Positions 37,301-56,345 of a stretch of DNA of 64,000 nucleotides are shown here, one piece after another. A program made the translations under genes and the position numbers. The notes beneath the pieces are model-generated. The model did not search any database. It saw only the letters and a program-made list of their open reading frames with translations, and was not told where the DNA came from. How positions within the stretch are numbered: the first letter of the stretch is position 1; each line of letters starts with the position of its first letter. The stretch spans positions 3,439 to 67,438 of the forward strand of contig CAZRMW010000002.1 of the NCBI GenBank assembly GCA_964601305.1, in the 5' to 3' direction. The DNA comes from an uncultured Candidatus Saccharibacteria bacterium (GTDB lineage Bacteria > Patescibacteriota > Minisyncoccia > JAHISW01 > Tagabacteraceae).

Positions 37301-38182
37301 ATGTCGCAAAACATCAAAAAACTAAAAAACCAATATTTGGAATATATAGAAATAGAAAGAGGGCGTGCGCTTAAAACAGTTGAGAATTATGATAGATATT
37401 TGAAAAAGTTTTTTGATTTTTCTAAAGTTAAAAATCCGCAAGATATAAAAGATGAGACAGTTCGTAAATATCGTTTGTATTTAAATAGAGAGGGACTGAA
37501 AAAGAAAACACAAAACTATTATTTAATTGCGCTTAGAAATTTTTTAAAGTATTTAGCAAAGTTAGATATAAAAAGTTTGCCTCCGGAAAGAATAGAGCTT
37601 GCGAAAGTTGGGCAGAGGCAATTGGATTTGGTAAGTGGTGACGACCTTGAGAGGCTTTTGAGTTCACCGAAAGGCGCCTGCGAGGCTGATTTAAGAGACA
37701 AAGCTATTTTAGAGCTTCTTTTTTCTACAGGGCTTCGAGTGTCAGAACTCTGTGGTCTTAATATAGATAGCATAGATTTGAAGAAAGATGAGTTTTCTGT
37801 GAGAGGGAAGGGGGATAAAGTAAGATTGGTTTTTTTGTCAGGAAATGCTAAAAGTGCTGTGAAGAATTATTTAGATAAAAGAGCAAATATAGATGAAGAA
37901 GCAATGTTTGTAAATATAAGATCGGGAGGTCGGTTAACAGCAAGATCGGTGGAAAGAATCGTACAAAAATATGCCACTTTGGCAGGGATTTCTAAAAAAA
38001 TGACGCCCCATGTAATAAGGCATTGTTTTGCTACGGATCTTTTGGAATCGGGAGCAGACTTACGCTCGGTACAGGCACTTTTGGGGCATAGCAATATTAC
38101 TACTACTCAAATTTATACACACGTTACCGATAGACAGCTGAAAGAAATTCATAAAACCTTTCATGGAAAAAAGCGCCGATAA
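37301..38182 (+). CDS. xerC: tyrosine recombinase XerC/XerD
   Basis: The R..H..R..Y catalytic set: LFSTGLRVSEL, HVIRHCFATDLL, LLGHSNITTTQIYTHV. Confidence 0.85.
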   Translation: MSQNIKKLKNQYLEYIEIERGRALKTVENYDRYLKKFFDFSKVKNPQDIKDETVRKYRLYLNREGLKKKTQNYYLIALRNFLKYLAKLDIKSLPPERIELAKVGQRQLDLVSGDDLERLLSSPKGACEADLRDKAILELLFSTGLRVSELCGLNIDSIDLKKDEFSVRGKGDKVRLVFLSGNAKSAVKNYLDKRANIDEEAMFVNIRSGGRLTARSVERIVQKYATLAGISKKMTPHVIRHCFATDLLESGADLRSVQALLGHSNITTTQIYTHVTDRQLKEIHKTFHGKKRR

Positions 38183-38579: not shown

Positions 38580-38656
38580 TGGTGGACCCTACCGGATTTG
38601 AACCGGTGACTTCTTCCATGCCATGGAAGCACTCTGGCCAACTGAGCTAAGGGCCC
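38580..38656 (-). tRNA. tRNA-Ala (anticodon GGC), CCA encoded
   Basis: Manual fold: acceptor GGGCCCT/AGGGTCC with G3:U70, D arm GCTC…GAGT, anticodon loop ATGGCAT, T loop TTCAAAT. Confidence 0.8.
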
Positions 38657-38733
38657 CTAAATCTAAATTAAACTTAATTTAGATCGGGCGAACAATTTTG
38701 TTAACAAAATAGTTTTAGCCTTGTTAATTTTTA

Positions 38734-38805
38734 TGCCCTCACCAGGAATCGAACCTAGATCTGATCCTTAGGAGGGATCTGTTCTATCCGTTGAACTACG
38801 AGGGC
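38734..38805 (-). tRNA. tRNA-Arg (anticodon CCU)
   Basis: Manual fold: acceptor GCCCTCG/TGAGGGC, anticodon stem GATCC/GGATC with loop CTCCTAA, T loop TTCGATT; CCA not encoded. Confidence 0.75.
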
Positions 38806-38837
38806 TCGCTAAGTGTGATTTATCCCGCTCGGCGGGG

Positions 38838-39074
38838 TTATTTTACACCTAACAATTCTGAGATTTTAGCTTTGTCGAAACCAATTATTGTTTCGTCGCC
38901 AATCGTTATTACTGGTACAGCCATTTGGCCAGTTTTTTCTATAAGCTCGTTTCTTTTGGCTTCGTCTATAGATACATCAAATTCTTCGTATTCTATGCCT
39001 TTTTCTTTAAACCAATCTTTTGCCATTACACAGTAGGCGCAAGAAGGAGTAGAGTATATTTGTACTTTTTGCAT
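38838..39074 (-). CDS. glutaredoxin-like protein (NrdH/Grx family)
   Basis: 78 aa with the CAYC active site in YSTPSCAYCVMAKDWF and the thioredoxin-fold pattern. Confidence 0.8.
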   Translation of the reverse strand: MQKVQIYSTPSCAYCVMAKDWFKEKGIEYEEFDVSIDEAKRNELIEKTGQMAVPVITIGDETIIGFDKAKISELLGVK

Positions 39075-39148
39075 ATTTTTAAATTTTTAAAAATTAATAA
39101 TACACTAGTATTCTACACTAATTTATCTTTATAGCAATTTATTTTTTG

Positions 39149-39233
39149 TGCGCGGAAGAGGATTTGAACCTCCACGAGAGTAACTCTCACTACCCCCTCA
39201 AGGTAGCGCGTCTACCAGTTCCGCCACCCGCGC
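39149..39233 (-). tRNA. tRNA-Leu (anticodon GAG), class II with long variable arm
   Basis: Acceptor GCGCGGG/TCCGCGC, D region GCG-GAACTGGTAGA-CGC, anticodon loop TTGAGGG, variable arm TGAGAGTTACTCTCG, T loop TTCAAAT. Confidence 0.8.
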
Positions 39234-39237
39234 TATT

Positions 39238-39750
39238 CTACTCTTTAGTTTTTGTAGATTCTTCTTTTTTAGTTTCCGCGCCCAAACTTTCAGATTGAGG
39301 TGGACCCGCCTGAATGTCCTTTGGACTTTCGGCGGGTTCTTCTTTGTCTTCTTCTGGTTTAGCTTCCACTTTTGAAGCGTCCATAATAGTTTCTTTGATT
39401 TGTTTCATTTGCTTCATTTTCTTTCTTACTTGTCTTGCAGCCCTTTCTCTTAAGTAATAAAGTTTGGCCCGCCTTACTCTTTTTGGTCTGCTTATAAGCT
39501 CTATTTTTTCAATTTTTGGTGAATATAGAGGTAAGGTTATTTCTACTCCTACACCTCCAGAAATTTTTCTTATAGTAAAAGTGGCACCTGGCTCTGTGCC
39601 GTGTTTTCGTGCAAGCAAAAGGCCTTCAAAAGCTTGAAGCCTACTTTTTTTACCTTCTTGGATTCTTTGCCACACTTTTACTGTGTCTCCTGGGCGAATA
39701 TCCAAATTTTTTCTGTCTTCAGTTTTTACAGGTGTAAATTGCATTTGCAT
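39238..39750 (-). CDS. rplS: 50S ribosomal protein L19 with an acidic/Lys-rich C-terminal extension
   Basis: [31 protein letters not shown]…[10 protein letters not shown] matches L19; about 55 extra C-terminal residues. Confidence 0.85.
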
Positions 39751-40460
39751 TACTCTTTTCTATCACAGTTTTCTAGATTATTCAATACTCTTTGTAAATC
39801 TTCTGGTAAGTCGGCTTCTAACTTAATTTTTCCATTTTGGGGGAGAGAAAACTCTAAGGAAGAAGCATGCAAAAAGTGTCTTTGTAAACCAAAAGGGCAA
39901 ACAGGTGTCTTTGTATAAACTTTATCGCAAACTATAGGTTTACTTATAGCTTTTAGGTGGACTCTTATCTGGTGTGTGCGCCCTGTTTTGGGCGACACCC
40001 GTAAGAGTGTATATTCTTTATACTCTTGTTCGACATTATATTCTGTAATTGCTTCGCGGAGTTTTCCACGAGCTCTTTTGTGTGCTAGGCGTTTGGTCGG
40101 AGTTTTTGGACTTCGGCCAATTGGTATATCTATTGTTCCACTCTTTTTATTTATTTTGCCTTCAATAAGAGCCAAGTATGTTTTTTTAATTTTCTTTTCT
40201 TGGAACTGTTTTTTTAGGTATTCAAAAGTTTTTTGGTTTTTGGCAATTAGTAAAATACCAGAAGTGTCTCTGTCTAGTCTGTGTACTATACCTGGGCGTA
40301 TTTCAGGGTCATCTCCTACCTTTTTAACCTCAGGATAATTTTCTATAAGCCAATCGACTAATGTTTCATGTTTCATATTTTGTGCTTCATGAATAAGAAG
40401 CCCAGCAGGTTTGTTTATTGCAACAATATTTTTATCTTCATATATTATTTTTATATTCAT
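39750..40460 (-). CDS. RluA-family pseudouridine synthase
   Basis: [16 protein letters not shown] catalytic motif. True start is [10 protein letters not shown]…; the ORF-track N-terminal 16 aa run through tRNA-Val. Confidence 0.8.
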
Positions 40461-40461
40461 A

Positions 40462-40534
40462 GTGCGCCCTGCAGGATTCGAACCTGCGACCCCTTGCATG
40501 TCGAGCAAGTGCTCTGCCGGCTGAGCTAAAGGCG
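40462..40534 (-). tRNA. tRNA-Val (anticodon GAC) with an unusual C at position 33
   Basis: Acceptor GCGCCTT/AGGGCGC, D arm GCTC-AGCCGGCA-GAGC, anticodon stem CTTGC/GCAAG with loop TCGACAT, T loop TTCGAAT. Confidence 0.7.
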
Positions 40535-40564
40535 CTTAATTAAATACTATTATATTTGGCGTAA

Positions 40565-42298: not shown

Positions 42299-42738
42299 AT
42301 ATGAATAAAACAATTATATATACAGATGGTGGGTCTAGGGGTAACCCAGGACCGGCTGGTGTGGGGGTAGTGATTGCTAACGAAAAAAACCAAACTATAA
42401 AAGGTTATTCAAAAGCTATTGGAAAAAGAACTAATAATGAAGCAGAATATGAAGCTGTTATTTTGGCGATGCAAAAGACTAAGCAGCTTTTTGGTAAAGA
42501 AAAAGTTAAGAAAATGGATTTTGAATTTAGAATGGATAGTGAGCTTGTGGCGAGACAGCTTCGTGGGGAGTATAAAATGAAAGAAGAAAAATTAATTCCT
42601 CTTTTCATAAAAATTTGGAATTTAAGAACAGAGTTTGGTGAGATTGTATTTAAAGAGATTCCTCGTGAAAAAAACAAGACGGCAGATGCTCTTGCAAACG
42701 AAGCTATGGATACTAAAAAACAAGAAGGGTTATTTTAG
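42295..42738 (+). CDS. rnhA: ribonuclease HI
   Basis: IYTDGGSRGNPGPAG…EAEYEAVILAM…TADALANEAMD, i.e. the RNase H catalytic DEDD residues. Confidence 0.85.
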   Translation: MNMNKTIIYTDGGSRGNPGPAGVGVVIANEKNQTIKGYSKAIGKRTNNEAEYEAVILAMQKTKQLFGKEKVKKMDFEFRMDSELVARQLRGEYKMKEEKLIPLFIKIWNLRTEFGEIVFKEIPREKNKTADALANEAMDTKKQEGLF

Positions 42739-42763
42739 AATTTCAAAAACAGAAACTAATTAT

Positions 42764-43573
42764 ATGAAATCTAAAAAACAAAAAAATATAAAACCTATAG
42801 TTTTTCAAGATAAAGAAGTTAGACGAGTTTGGGACGAAAAAAAAGAAGAATGGTATTTTTCAATTATTGATATTATTGAAATTTTAACCGAAAGTCCGAG
42901 ACCAAGAAAATATTGGAATGCTTTGAAAACTAAATTAAAAAAAGAAGGCTCTCAGTTGTCCCAAGATGTGGGACAACTGAGAATAAAATCAGGAGATGGA
43001 AAACTTTATTTAACAGATGTTGCTGATACAAAAACTATTTTTAGGCTTGTTCAATCAATTCCAAGTAAAAAAGCAGAACCATTTAAATTGTGGCTTGCTA
43101 AAGTTGCTAATGAGAGAATAAATGAAATTTATGACCCTGAAATTGCTATAAATAGAGCAATTAAGATTTATCAAAGAAAAGGTTATGATGAAAAATGGAT
43201 AAATCAAAGATTAAAATCTATTGAAATCAGGAAAGAACTTACAGATGAATGGAACGAACGAGGAGTAAAAGAAGGGCTTGAGTATGCTATTTTGACAAAT
43301 GAAATTTTAAGATCTTGGAGTGAAATGGATACTTTGCAATATAAAAAGTTTAAAGGATTAAAAAAGGAATCACTAAAAGACAATATGTCTAATTTAGAAT
43401 TGGTTTTAAACATGTTAGCGGAAACTTCAACAACTGAAATTAGTAAAAAAGAAAAACCAAAAGATTTTAAGGAAAATAAAAAAGTAGCAAAAAAGGGTGG
43501 GAGTATTGCCCAAAAAGCAAAATTTGAACTAGAAAAAAAATTAAAACGGAATGTTTTAAAAGGCAAAAAATAA
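42764..43573 (+). CDS. Bro-N / DinD-like (phage antirepressor-type) domain protein
   Basis: The N-terminal region IVFQDKEVRRVWDEKKEEWYFSIIDIIEILTES fits the BRO-N pattern. Start taken at the internal Met to avoid overlap with rnhA. Confidence 0.45.
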   Translation: MKSKKQKNIKPIVFQDKEVRRVWDEKKEEWYFSIIDIIEILTESPRPRKYWNALKTKLKKEGSQLSQDVGQLRIKSGDGKLYLTDVADTKTIFRLVQSIPSKKAEPFKLWLAKVANERINEIYDPEIAINRAIKIYQRKGYDEKWINQRLKSIEIRKELTDEWNERGVKEGLEYAILTNEILRSWSEMDTLQYKKFKGLKKESLKDNMSNLELVLNMLAETSTTEISKKEKPKDFKENKKVAKKGGSIAQKAKFELEKKLKRNVLKGKK

Positions 43574-51928: not shown

Positions 51929-52300
51929 ATGTCTTTTATGGATAAAATTAAAGGTGTTTTTAGTGGAGCTAAAAATGAAGATACTTCTATGGGTGCAGGT
52001 GATGCAGGCATGCCACCAGTTGAACCTGCTTCACCAATGGGCGAGCCTACAACATCGGATGTTCCGGAAGTTCCAGTTTCAGAGCCAATGGCTACCCCAA
52101 CTCCAGCAGAGCCTGCTTCGCCAATGGGCGAGCCAGTAGCTGCTCCAGAGCCGGAGCCTATGGCTAGCCCAACTCCAGCTGAGCCTGAAGCTCCAGCTGT
52201 AACTCCCGAGACACCCCAGCCACAACCTTCGGATGTAGGCGGGCAGGCAGTTGAGGGTGGAGAAGAAAAGCCAGTAGAAGGTGGTGGAATGGCTTTGTAA
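51929..52300 (+). CDS. Pro/Ala/Glu-rich repetitive protein
   Basis: PAEPASPMGEP repeated; GC-rich; followed by terminator 52321-52362. Confidence 0.4.
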   Translation: MSFMDKIKGVFSGAKNEDTSMGAGDAGMPPVEPASPMGEPTTSDVPEVPVSEPMATPTPAEPASPMGEPVAAPEPEPMASPTPAEPEAPAVTPETPQPQPSDVGGQAVEGGEEKPVEGGGMAL

Positions 52301-53154: not shown

Positions 53155-53607
53155 ATGCCTACTTTATTAAACAACAAAAGAGCAGATTTTGATTATGAAG
53201 TATTAGAAAAGTTTGATGCAGGAATCAAGCTTCTTGGTTTTGAAGTAAAATCTTTAAAAATGAAGAGAGGAAACCTTACTGGCTCTCATATAATCATCAG
53301 GGGAGAAGAAGCATATATGGTAGGTATGGAAATACCGCCATACCAGCCAAAAAATACTCCTACAGACTATGATTCAGCGCAGACTAGAAAACTTTTACTC
53401 ACAAAAAAAGAAATAAAATATTTAGATGGTAAAGACAGCCAAAAAGGATTAACCTTGATACCATTGACTATTTATACAAAAAATGGTTTAATAAAAGTAT
53501 CTTTTGCAGTAGCAAAAGGGCAAAAAAGATACGACAAAAGAGAAAAAATAAAAGAACGTGAATCAAAAAGAGATATAGAACGTAAATTGAAATCACAGAA
53601 TATATAA
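53155..53607 (+). CDS. smpB: SsrA-binding protein
   Basis: FDYEVLEKFDAGIKLLGFEVKSL…TRKLLLTKKEI…VAKGQKRYDKRE matches SmpB; immediately precedes the tmRNA. Confidence 0.85.
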   Translation: MPTLLNNKRADFDYEVLEKFDAGIKLLGFEVKSLKMKRGNLTGSHIIIRGEEAYMVGMEIPPYQPKNTPTDYDSAQTRKLLLTKKEIKYLDGKDSQKGLTLIPLTIYTKNGLIKVSFAVAKGQKRYDKREKIKERESKRDIERKLKSQNI

Positions 53608-53954
53608 GGGAGTGATCGGCTTTGATAAGAAGCTTCTTTTAAAACAGTGCATATCGAGTATTCTAAAATCTCGTTAAACTTTTAGAGCTTCAAATAAATG
53701 CAAATTTATTTAAAACTCCAGCTTTAGCTTACGCTTAAAGCTCGTTCCCTTACTCATTCTCAATAAGTAAGGAAGAACGTCATCATTGAGATAGATAATT
53801 TTTATTGGGCTTTGAAAAATTATTGAAACAAAACAAAGCCAAAGCTAAGAACTTTTTGCTCGGTTTTTATTTCTTAGTCTAAACAAACCAAGCTAAATAT
53901 GTAGATACTTTTTAAAAATCTTTTTACACGGCGGTTCGATTCCGCCCACTTCCA
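53608..53954 (+). ncRNA. ssrA: tmRNA (transfer-messenger RNA)
   Basis: 5' GGGAGTG pairs with 3' CACTTCC including G3:U70; T arm GGCGG-TTCGATT-CCGCC. PK1 region CAGTGCATATCGAG resembles E. coli GGUGCAUGCCGAG. Tag ORF gca aat tta ttt aaa act cca gct tta gct tac gct taa encodes ANLFKTPALAYA (53700-53738); the GCTTTAGC core is conserved. CCA is not encoded. Confidence 0.85.
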
Positions 53955-54377
53955 CAAAATATTAATTCCCGAAGCGTTAGCTTTGGGGATTTTGATTTTG
54001 TAGGTTGGTGGCGGAATTGAACAGGCGGAGGCGGGCACCGTCGCCGACTAGCGAAGCTAGTGGCGCGCGGTCGCCGAGCCCGGGGAGGAAGTTCTTAGTG
54101 AAGACAAGTGCAAAGCACGAAGTCTGAGCTTAGAAACTTGACCCTCGATTCCGCCCACTTCCACAAAATATTAATTCCCGAAGCGTTAGCTTTGGGGATT
54201 TTGATTTTGTAGGTTGGTGGCGGAATTGAACAGGCGGAGGCGGGCACCGTCGCCGACTAGCGAAGCTAGTGGCGCGCGGTCGCCGAGCCCGGGGAGGAAG
54301 TTCTTAGTGAAGACAAGTGCAAAGCACGAAGTCTGAGCTTAGAAACTTGACCCTCGATTCCGCCCACTTCCACAACT
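53937..54377 (+). repeat. 209-bp tandem repeat (2.1 copies) beginning inside the last 18 nt of ssrA
   Basis: CGATTCCGCCCACTTCCACAA recurs at 53937, 54146 and 54355 with identical 188-bp GC-rich spacers. Confidence 0.9.
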
Positions 54378-54526
54378 TGAGAATAAGGAGCTTGCTTTTT
54401 TTATAGAAAAAATCTACTCTTTGATAAAGCACATTAACATTCGTGCGTGTCAAATATCCGTGCAACAATGGTACGCCAGCTTGCACATTTTTAACCCCCT
54501 AACCTCTTTAAAAAGGAGAATAAATT

Positions 54527-55465
54527 ATGGGTACGCCAAAAGAATTATTTCCACCGACAATTGCAAGAAAAATTGAATTACTCGAGTTTGGCAGAAAAAC
54601 AGGGAAAAGGTTAGATGTGAATGACTTTGCAGATGTTCTTGAAGAAACAGCGAAAACTATTCTTCCGCTTGTACCGTGGTTGGATAAACAGGTTTTCAAC
54701 AAGACCTTTGTTAAAAGGCACGATGTACCAGAAAAATACAGAAGAAAAAGGGGCTTGTTTTTATTTAGAGAAAGAGGTGTTGTAAGTGTTTATCTTCAAC
54801 GTTCAGGGAAATGGTTTTTGTGTTTCAATGACACTTTTCTATCAATATTTAATAATCCGTGTTCTATTTTTTGTGAAATCAACTCAGAGTTGTTCGCTAT
54901 GGTTTTTTGGGAACACTCAAAATATTTTTTAAGCAAAGGTGGAAGATTGGTTGAAAAAGAAGCTCCTTTTATGAAAGATATCTTTCTTTATCACGACATA
55001 GTCCTTAATTTTGTTTCTCAATGTTTTGAATCGATAAGAAAACTGATCGAAGAAAAAGAAAAGAGAATCAATACAATGAAAGATTGGATGAATTTGGGCA
55101 TTGATTTTTCTGAATCTCTTGACCCGCTGACTTCCACAGATAAAGAGATAGAAGTTGAGAGATTTTGCATGTGGAAAGACGAGATAAAAGGCCCAAGAAG
55201 AAGCCGGCTAACTGGTTCTTATTTTTGTCCGAAAGCCCTAGATTTGTTTTGGGAAAGTGTTAAAGATAGAAAACACATAGGAGATGGTTGGGATGTTGAA
55301 CAGACCGACATAGACACTTTTTCTCCAGAATCCTTGCAGAGATTTTTAGAAAAGATTTATTGGAATTTTGAAGAAGCAGAAAAGGAAAATGTGCTTGGCA
55401 GGGGGCCAATAACGGATTCTGAAATAGAAGTTTTGAAAAAAGTTGTTGAATCCTTGAAAAAATAG
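54527..55465 (+). CDS. hypothetical protein (cargo of the tmRNA-adjacent segment)
   Basis: 312 aa; SD AAAAAGGAG; no recognisable motifs; GC content is somewhat above the local average. Confidence 0.5.
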   Translation: MGTPKELFPPTIARKIELLEFGRKTGKRLDVNDFADVLEETAKTILPLVPWLDKQVFNKTFVKRHDVPEKYRRKRGLFLFRERGVVSVYLQRSGKWFLCFNDTFLSIFNNPCSIFCEINSELFAMVFWEHSKYFLSKGGRLVEKEAPFMKDIFLYHDIVLNFVSQCFESIRKLIEEKEKRINTMKDWMNLGIDFSESLDPLTSTDKEIEVERFCMWKDEIKGPRRSRLTGSYFCPKALDLFWESVKDRKHIGDGWDVEQTDIDTFSPESLQRFLEKIYWNFEEAEKENVLGRGPITDSEIEVLKKVVESLKK

Positions 55466-55475
55466 GATTTTTTAT

Positions 55476-55513
55476 AAAAAAGCGAAGCTCTGCGGAGTCT
55501 CGCTTTTTATATT
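55476..55513 (+). terminator. terminator AAAAAGCGAAGCTCTGCGGAGTCTCGCTTTTT, copy 1
   Basis: Near-identical copy at 56050-56088. Confidence 0.6.
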
Positions 55514-55773
55514 TGCATTAAAATTTGCATCGAATTTAAATATTTTCAAAACCTACTCTAACTAGTGCTATCACCTCAGTTAGAGTAGGTTTTAAACTGT
55601 CTCGCTAATTCAGCTATAGCAGTTTTAAGTAGATAGTATTAAGAGCATAGTATTAAGAGCATGGAATTTCAAATATTAATTGGTTTACGATTGCAAAAAA
55701 TTGACAAATAATAAAATTAGTGATATGTTGCTACCAACAGAAAATTAAAAATAAAATAAGGAGGACAGCTCGA

Positions 55774-56016
55774 ATGAAAAAAAATGCAAGGATAACACTT
55801 GAGAAAATAAGGAAATACTACGAAAAAAGAAAAAAAACTTCTGATCGTTTTGATTCTTTCGTTAGTGGAATTTGGTTGGCAACAAATGAAAAAGCTAAGT
55901 TAACAGAAAATCAAGAAGGTAATTTATGGGGGATAATGATGTCCCTCCATTCAGAAGAAAATCTGACGGTTTTGGATGAAATAACTGTTGCTACTTGGAT
56001 TAATTCTTGTCGTTAA
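55774..56016 (+). CDS. hypothetical 81-aa protein
   Basis: SD AAGGAGG before the ATG at 55774; followed by the duplicated terminator. Confidence 0.45.
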   Translation: MKKNARITLEKIRKYYEKRKKTSDRFDSFVSGIWLATNEKAKLTENQEGNLWGIMMSLHSEENLTVLDEITVATWINSCR

Positions 56017-56049
56017 GATTTAATGTTCCCATATTTGACCTATCTCTCA

Positions 56050-56088
56050 AAAAGCGAAGCTCTGTGGGGCCTCGCTTTTTTATATTGA
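56050..56088 (+). terminator. terminator AAAAAGCGAAGCTCTGTGGGGCCTCGCTTTTTT, copy 2
   Basis: Hairpin plus T-run. Confidence 0.6.
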
Positions 56089-56159
56089 CTAATTTAAATA
56101 TATGTATATAATGGTAAATAAGAATAAGAGGCCGAAGGGCCTTTTAAAAATGATTTAAA

Positions 56160-56345
56160 ATGTTTACAAAATTAGTCAATTATTTAAAGGGTACAAAATC
56201 AGAGCTTGGCTCTGTAAACTGGCCTACAAAAAATCAAACAATTAATTCTACATTGTTAGTAATTGGTTTTTCTTTGTTCATTGCATTTTTTTTGGGATTT
56301 TTTGATAAAATTTTTACATTTTTACTAAAAACATTTGTTTTATAA
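56160..56345 (+). CDS. secE: preprotein translocase subunit SecE
   Basis: 61 aa with a single C-terminal TM (LLVIGFSLFIAFFLGFFD); directly upstream of nusG. Confidence 0.75.
   Translation: MFTKLVNYLKGTKSELGSVNWPTKNQTINSTLLVIGFSLFIAFFLGFFDKIFTFLLKTFVL

Follow-up and report, generated by a model that had tools for sequence, protein, structure and literature searches.

The window analysed here is a 64-kb stretch (64,000 nt) of contig CAZRMW010000002.1 from an uncultured Candidatus Saccharibacteria bacterium, and our subject is the tandem repeat that directly follows its transfer-messenger RNA (tmRNA) gene, ssrA. The smpB-ssrA pair and the features downstream, as far as secE, are collected in Table 1. 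The tmRNA gene itself is canonical, with its tag and a G3:U70 pair, as the first-pass annotation of this DNA had recognized: the ARAGORN call, the Rfam match and the pairing of the acceptor strands (5′ GGGAGUG with 3′ CACUUCC) were all in agreement. The last 22 nt of ssrA, TCGATTCCGCCCACTTCCACAA, hereafter called the core, occur three times, where the number expected by chance is 0. Tandem Repeats Finder (TRF) delimited the array at 53936-54375, with a period of 209, 2.1 copies and 100% identity. That the 3′ end of ssrA recurs twice more at an exact 209-bp spacing had already been noticed, and this holds, the core being one T longer than was then stated; the two spacers between cores are likewise identical, as claimed, yet they measure 187 bp each and not 188 bp. 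The array can be described as two identical units, the first of which begins at the first base after ssrA and lies on the same strand as that gene. The GC content of the repeat unit is 0.54 overall and 0.60 over 54000-54144, as compared with 0.333 for the window, and the GC-rich stretch at the ssrA locus consists of the repeat unit only. A second copy of the unit elsewhere in the 64-kb window was not found.

The unit was predicted to fold strongly, and more so on the strand of ssrA (-97 kcal/mol, z = -6.2) than on the reverse strand (-75.5 kcal/mol, z = -4.2). After a terminator-like hairpin at its start, the unit holds an inverted copy of the tmRNA T-loop and T-stem, and in the predicted fold this copy pairs with the beginning of the next core, UCGAUUCCGCC, to form a closing helix that we call P1. 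Together with two arms, P1 makes a three-way junction. P1 contains a U-G pair, which turns into an A-C mismatch on the opposite strand, so that the + strand is the better paired of the two.

Table 1. Features of the smpB-secE region, with positions counted from the first letter of the window
Feature	Position	Strand	Evidence or remark
smpB	53155..53607	+	150-aa open reading frame (ORF); identical protein in L001 is Pfam SmpB
ssrA (tmRNA), tag ANLFKTPALAYA	53608..53957	+	ARAGORN 53608-53955; Rfam tmRNA model RF00023 over 53608-53957, 115 bits
Core copy 1	53936-53957	+	last 22 nt of ssrA
Repeat unit 1, 209 bp, ends in core copy 2 (54145-54166)	53958..54166	+	TRF; fold; model R1
Terminator-like hairpin and U tract at start of unit 1 (in unit 2 at 54173-54210)	53964..54001	+	terminator scan; fold
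Inverted copy of tmRNA T-loop/T-stem, GGCGGAAUUGA (in unit 2 at 54219-54229); pairs with 54145-54155 as P1	54010..54020	+	fold; helix table
Arm 1: P2 (GGC/GCC), GGA/GA internal loop, GGCG/CGCC, long hairpin with GAA loop	54024..54080	+	helix table
Arm 2: GGG/CCC and hairpin AAGUUCUUAG...CUUAGAAACUU	54082..54144	+	helix table; basal part like L154
Repeat unit 2, identical to unit 1, ends in core copy 3 (54354-54375)	54167..54375	+	TRF, 100%; model R1
ORF312, 312 aa, lineage-specific ORFan outside the repeat element	54527..55465	+	ORF list; protein searches
Two terminators, 32 nt each	55477-55508; 56049-56080		91% identical
ORF80, 80 aa, between the two terminators	55774..56016	+	ORF list
secE promoter (TTGACT-16-TATAAT) and secE	56085..56345	+	promoter scan; Pfam SecE in L001; alignment with L013

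This layout recalls the tRNA-linked repeats (TLRs) known from E. coli. [quoted passage not shown] They are without known function, an early claim that RtT takes part in the stringent response having been retracted, and read-through expression has been reported for rrA/B/F (PMC8144298). In the tyrT-tyrV region of strain MG1655, we found the 19-nt 3′ end of tRNA-Tyr (AATCCTTCCCCCACCACCA) six times, with three 178-bp units after tyrV (TRF, 178 bp x3.1). [quoted passage not shown] Among 5426 complete E. coli genomes, the RtT/TLR unit was found in 4726, at 1-9 places each. It was absent from about 700 of the 5426, and 18 of the places were on plasmids.

Set beside the E. coli TLRs (the 178-bp units of tyrT/tyrV, RtT/rttR, and rrA/rrB/rrF behind 5S rRNA), the window unit likewise follows a stable-RNA gene immediately on its 3′ side and in the same orientation, though the linked gene is here a tmRNA, which has a tRNA-like 3′ domain. 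Like them, it ends with the last 18-22 nt of the linked gene, 22 nt in this case, present three times at the exact spacing given above. It also comes in one to several tandem copies whose number differs among strains, two units being present here and 0 or 1 in same-strain assemblies (see below), against the one to five of the TLRs. As in E. coli, the terminal copy of the 3′ end has an inverted counterpart inside the unit, and the two pair to close a GC-rich folded interior, P1 taking the place of the RF00391 closing helix. The unit encodes no protein, and, as at rrB, it sits beyond a first terminator. Several differences were also apparent. The E. coli repeats are linked to tRNA or 5S rRNA genes, not to tmRNA; the host of the window is not an enterobacterium, but a bacterium of the Patescibacteria type (candidate phyla radiation, CPR) with 33% GC; and the window unit has 209 bp with a 22-nt repeat, whereas the tyrT unit has 178 bp with 19 nt.

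Similar units were then found in other bacteria. A scan with SmpB, taking one genome per species, gave Patescibacteria as the closest loci, at no more than 79% identity. In this SmpB-chosen sample, the tmRNA 3′ end was repeated downstream of 2 of the 27 tmRNA genes (L012 and L021), and a comparable repeat behind tRNA genes was not found (0/27), which makes the element sporadic. In both L012 and L021 the order is that of the window, namely a terminator, an inverted T-arm copy (..GGAATYGAAC), a GC-rich interior and a terminal copy of the gene's 3′ end. A metagenome scan with the pattern GTTCRANTCCGCC-N(55-85)-GGAATYGAAC yielded at least 120 loci. After ARAGORN filtering, many of the matches listed were seen to hold such a unit, linked either to a tmRNA gene or to a gene for tRNA-Phe, Cys, Arg, Thr, Val, Ala or Gly. 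There, a second copy of the last 12-26 nt of the gene lay 130-215 nt downstream, the left edge of the repeat shifted between T-loop positions 54 and 60, and the GC content of the hosts ranged from 32% to 68%. The scan pattern leaves the terminal direct repeat, the homology of the interior and the occurrence of arrays unconstrained.

Tandem arrays were present behind tmRNA in L136 (212 bp x4.1, 99%), behind tRNA-Cys in L176 (202 bp x2.3) and behind tRNA-Phe in L126 (155 bp x2.6). The 5′ junction of the window unit was in common with that of L136, and the basal part of its arm 2 aligned with L154, another tmRNA-linked unit, over 73 nt with 73% identity (blastn E = 6e-6). Furthermore, closely related interiors were found behind different genes, with termini matching each of them: L099 and L155 are linked to tmRNA, L189 to tRNA-Phe and L149 to tRNA-Ala. 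The neighbourhoods of the compared unit loci had no protein in common beyond SmpB and housekeeping genes. Incidentally, we noticed that in the L136 array, whose cores (oriented) are at 389, 601, 813, 1025 and 1237, the gene's own 3′ end reads ...CTCCACAA and all four downstream copies read ...CTCCACCA, that is, the mature CCA end. We also noted a group I intron (RF00028, 64.6 bits) amid tRNA genes at 2611-2846 of L118, a contig that bears a tRNA-Gly-linked unit as well.

We next turned to the interior of the unit. Units linked to tmRNA, such as L154, L136, L099, L155 and others, have what we call a type A core, GAAC-(0-2 nt)-P2-GGA-(variable hairpin)-GA-P2′-GG, and the window matches it as GGC-GGA...GA-GCC. 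The 3-bp helix P2 occurred among the relatives in six pair types (GGC/GCC, GCC/GGC, GUC/GAC, GAC/GUC, GCC/GGU and AGC/GCU). A complementary P2 partner was present in 14 of 27 units, as compared with 6.6 +/- 2.2 (maximum 13) when random triplets were used. When the four units with closely related interiors (L099, L155, L189 and L149) were submitted to RNAalifold, compensatory double changes were seen in 13 of the 30 pairs, and the loops CAGCAG and GAGCGRCGGCGAG were conserved across all four. The window unit and L154, folded independently, gave the same three-way junction, and G-U pairs, present in both P1 and P2, speak for the strand of the linked gene. Last, nine other units linked to tmRNA, the window being excluded, were used to build a covariance model, R1. 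It matched the window at 54010-54155 and 54219-54364 with 36.4 bits and E = 7.5e-9, an E-value whose calibration is rough; it gave no further match in the 64 kb. Collectively, these models indicate that the interior of the unit keeps a predicted single-strand fold that is conserved across relatives.

We then asked how stable the array is. Assemblies of the same strain, retrieved by lookup of the exact SmpB and ORF312 proteins, aligned to the window at 99.9-100% identity; apart from a single mismatch, in L002, the repeat alone differed. No unit was present in L004 (ENA SCRA20-1), in which one core is followed directly by CTTGAG... One unit with two cores was present in L001/L009 (JGI 3300009405), L002 (ENA SUTE22-1) and L003 (Logan SRR9166041), as compared with two units and three cores in the window. 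In addition, among Logan contigs assembled at k=31 from run SRR8062331, L006 stops exactly 8 nt past the core and L010 begins exactly 8 nt before it. Both breaks thus fall k-1, or 30 nt, around the core, as expected if unit-to-unit and unit-to-flank junctions were both present in the reads of that run. The existence of 0-, 1- and 2-unit alleles with matching flanks shows that the copy number is a real polymorphism within one population. One proposal of the first-pass annotation, that of a locally amplified unit carrying the ssrA 3′ end, was borne out by these alleles, whose flanks are otherwise identical.

Taking layout, relatives and fold together, we give a probability of roughly 0.75 to the reading of the 209-bp unit as a tRNA-linked repeat that belongs to a tmRNA gene, and not as the scar of an integrase. 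One alternative is that an assembler expanded or collapsed a single unit into a tandem duplication. Short-read assemblers do struggle with perfect 209-bp tandem copies, and contigs L005, L006 and L007 terminate at the repeat. Yet the contig ends from SRR8062331 lie exactly 30 nt around the core, as for a true unit-to-unit junction, which makes such an artefact unlikely; clean 0- and 1-unit alleles come from independent assemblies, and arrays of 2 to 4+ units occur in related loci and in complete E. coli genomes. We regard an artefact as highly improbable. A second alternative, close to the scar of serial integration and excision that the first-pass annotation had put forward, is that an element integrated at the ssrA 3′ end by means of a tyrosine integrase, then lost its genes and left repeats of the attL/attR type, and that 209-bp minicircles are now gained or lost through an integrase supplied in trans. 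As at integrase attachment (att) sites, the direct repeat spans the T loop to the 3′ end of ssrA, the gene is intact at the left junction, L004 provides an exact empty site and arrays are possible. A circle would likewise yield a unit-to-unit junction, and the unit brings a replacement trailer and a terminator, as integrating elements do; ssrA-specific islands with repeats of ~20 bp and tandem arrays are described for Dehalococcoides (PMC3146451). Against this, the window unit has neither integrase nor cargo, and no recombinase adjoins the repeats here or in related loci, where no other shared protein was found beside the units either. The earlier statement that no integrase is present is correct for the 15 kb around ssrA but not for the whole window, which encodes a Xer-type tyrosine recombinase at 37301-38182, 16 kb off. 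Remnants of islands should also vary widely in size, whereas the units are uniformly small (~130-215 bp) across phyla; the interior covaries as a single-stranded fold typically does; the repeat's left edge, which ranges from T-loop position 54 to 60 among members, fits poorly with one fixed crossover site; and neither the unit nor the pattern was found in 2.9 million viral contigs. An att scar is, in our judgement, quite unlikely. The first-pass annotation had itself named, as grounds for giving up its view, related genomes in which the repeat is a conserved functional RNA such as a riboswitch or a small RNA, and the covarying fold together with the TLR/RtT layout comes close to such a case. 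As for the Xer-type gene, its best NCBIfam matches are XerD/XerC/XerA, it adjoins four tRNA genes (38580-40535), and it is the only recombinase among the window ORFs scanned.

A last alternative is that of a mobile module without protein, whose interior would move between stable-RNA genes and acquire inverted and direct copies of the target's 3′ end, possibly by template switching or through an RNA or complementary DNA intermediate; the window would then represent a recent gain. It is attractive in view of the related interiors behind different genes with locally matched termini (L099, L155, L189 and L149), the patchy distribution in the SmpB-chosen sample and the presence and absence of the unit within one strain. 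Besides, the tyrT-rttR region of E. coli was found to be enriched in exonuclease-resistant DNA under stress (preprint 10.1101/2024.07.17.603846). However, the 64-kb window has no second copy, no fixed-length target duplication was seen and no candidate for an enzyme was found; an ancestral state of one unit, followed by losses through recombination, fits the polymorphism equally well, and gene conversion could keep the termini matched to the gene. We hold this possibility to be doubtful. [quoted passage not shown] Unlike these, it occupies one locus in the window, with no other copy in the 64 kb, its termini are the 3′ end of the neighbouring gene and not a sequence common to a whole family, and the length of its direct repeat differs between members (12 to 26 nt), with no fixed target duplication, REP-associated tyrosine transposase (RAYT) or other transposase.

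Other known systems were considered and rejected. A group I intron in the T loop does not fit, the unit being too short and the gene already complete, with no U/G splice-site pattern in any register. A two-piece (permuted) tmRNA had a weak partial Rfam match (E = 0.059), which was made of the T arm and a chance 5′ motif, and a decayed duplicate of the tmRNA body was set aside as the interior was unlike the upstream tmRNA in nine loci, with |z| mostly below 2. For a retron, an IS110 bridge RNA or a TnpB guide RNA, there was no reverse transcriptase, recombinase or TnpB nearby and no conserved neighbour. ORF312 was no better as a partner for any of these three, having no match in Pfam, PHROG, NCBIfam or PADLOC. 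The inverted boxes conform only loosely to the RYYYAAC/GTTRRRY of an integron attC, and there is no fixed G/TT position from which the repeat begins. A phage attP was also dismissed, for neither a 52-nt core nor the T-arm pattern was found in the viral contigs.

Some observations weigh against the unit being a tRNA-linked repeat. A strong terminator stands ahead of every unit, and a scan for sigma-70-type promoters predicted none inside or between the units; expression of the unit may consequently be low. RF00391, whose gathering threshold is 45 bits, gave no match in the window even at E <= 10, and conversely R1 missed the E. coli units, as well as the L021-type unit. The interior of the window unit thus belongs to another sequence family than that of the E. 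coli TLRs, and common descent with the latter rests on layout, not on sequence. The metagenome pattern, for its part, demands a T arm and an inverted copy, so this part of the layout was partly selected for. In addition, recombination between 22-bp repeats accounts for the passage from one unit to none, but not for the arrival of the first unit. With RF00391 failing on the window and R1 failing on E. coli, the window unit can be called a TLR by layout and not an RtT homolog; we class it, by analogy, as a putative TLR that is a member of a new tmRNA-linked sequence family. One further case may be worth mentioning. In an Rfam scan that covered 17 of the metagenomic unit loci, the tRNA-Phe-linked L179 gave a full-length, sub-threshold RF00391 match of 33.8 bits (local E = 9e-5), and its second tandem copy gave 25.5 bits.

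If the window unit behaves as a tRNA-linked repeat, what is known from E. coli suggests the following course of events. TLRs such as RtT and RrB are transcribed together with the gene upstream of them, and a discrete RNA is processed from the transcript. [quoted passage not shown] The copy of the tmRNA 3′ end that terminates the unit, paired in P1 and with its 3′ tail free, would then enter the 3′-end processing of tRNA and tmRNA, and this might release a stable RNA of ~150 nt. As to copy number, unequal crossing-over between 209-bp units would interconvert two units and one, and recombination or slippage between the 22-bp cores would lead from one unit to none.

The literature that we found suggests that discussion of TLRs has been almost confined to E. 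coli and its relatives. New here are the occurrence of the TLR layout in very distant bacteria, Patescibacteria with their reduced genomes among them, where it follows tmRNA and many tRNA genes; an interior with a conserved junction and covarying helices; and related interiors behind different genes with termini matched to each. Since related interiors lie behind tmRNA, tRNA-Phe and tRNA-Ala and the distribution is patchy, there is room for real mobility. A wider view, which we advance tentatively and think rather unlikely, would make TLRs a class of structured, protein-less elements found across phyla at the 3′ flanks of tRNA, 5S rRNA and tmRNA genes. Their termini would be rebuilt from the target upon moving, possibly via RNA or a template switch, and the polymorphism of the window would reflect an active element. 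Were it true, TLRs would be no enterobacterial curiosity. In any case, the alignments, the natural 0/1/2-unit alleles and the arrays provide comparative material for asking whether TLRs are functional RNA or selfish DNA, and how they spread. They also carry a warning for annotation, in that a repeated tRNA or tmRNA 3′ end alone is no evidence of an integrated island.

Downstream of the array, two orphan genes and two terminators had been taken for a cassette-like islet inserted between ssrA and secE. Both ORFs exist, the first having 312 aa as reported and the second 80 aa, not 81. When 5.8 billion proteins were searched with ORF312, 3 hits were obtained; its distant homologs numbered only two and were on short contigs that lack a tmRNA gene. 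ORF80 had no family match. Their GC content, said to exceed the local average, does not: at 0.351 for ORF312 and 0.317 for ORF80, it is inside the range of the 22 long ORFs of the window (0.325 +/- 0.047). The islet does correspond to lineage-specific extra DNA. Indeed, in the relative L013 a secE promoter of the same form, TTGACT-16-TATAAT, starts 6 nt past ssrA, so that ~2.1 kb (53958-56084) are extra in the window as compared with L013. In contrast, the ORFs are not tied to the repeat, both being retained in the 0-unit allele L004, and no core copies flanking them were found. ORF312 and ORF80 are lineage-specific ORFans beside the TLR, and nothing marks them as its cargo. The terminators are near-identical, as the first-pass annotation had it, and occur nowhere else in the window. 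They lie 572 bp apart, their similarity runs a few bases past the stems, and the second abuts the secE promoter. This suggests that ORF80 arrived by a separate small duplication or insertion at a terminator. We also noticed that the gap between ORF312 and ORF80 holds, at 55545-55596 and 55621-55662, an inverted repeat of 19 bp whose arms are 95% complementary and a 14-bp tandem repeat in three copies (AGTATTAAGAGCAT).

Small genes of the GIY-YIG family (~80-100 aa) were seen beside smpB/ssrA in L015, L016, L018, L021, L024, L033, L034, L036, L040 and L188, and such genes are common beside ssrA in Patescibacteria. As a mobilising enzyme for the repeat, GIY-YIG was rejected: the window has no such gene, and L188 is the only metagenomic unit locus with one. 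L036 has two segments, one with GIY-YIG and the other of 179 bp, each with copies of the tmRNA 3′ end at its borders (at 1628, 2158 and 2337), and a 122-bp repeat (x1.8) directly follows ssrA there. It seems that the 3′ flank of the tmRNA gene is a hotspot where small inserts of several kinds gather.

Two further features of the window lie upstream of smpB. At 51929-52300, in a genome of 33% GC, there is a GC-rich (0.55-0.63) ORF of 123 aa with proline-rich repeats of the PAEPASPMGEP type and no Pfam match. About 10 kb upstream of smpB, at 42635-43573, a protein of 312 aa has a Bro-N domain, a domain usually associated with phages or mobile elements.

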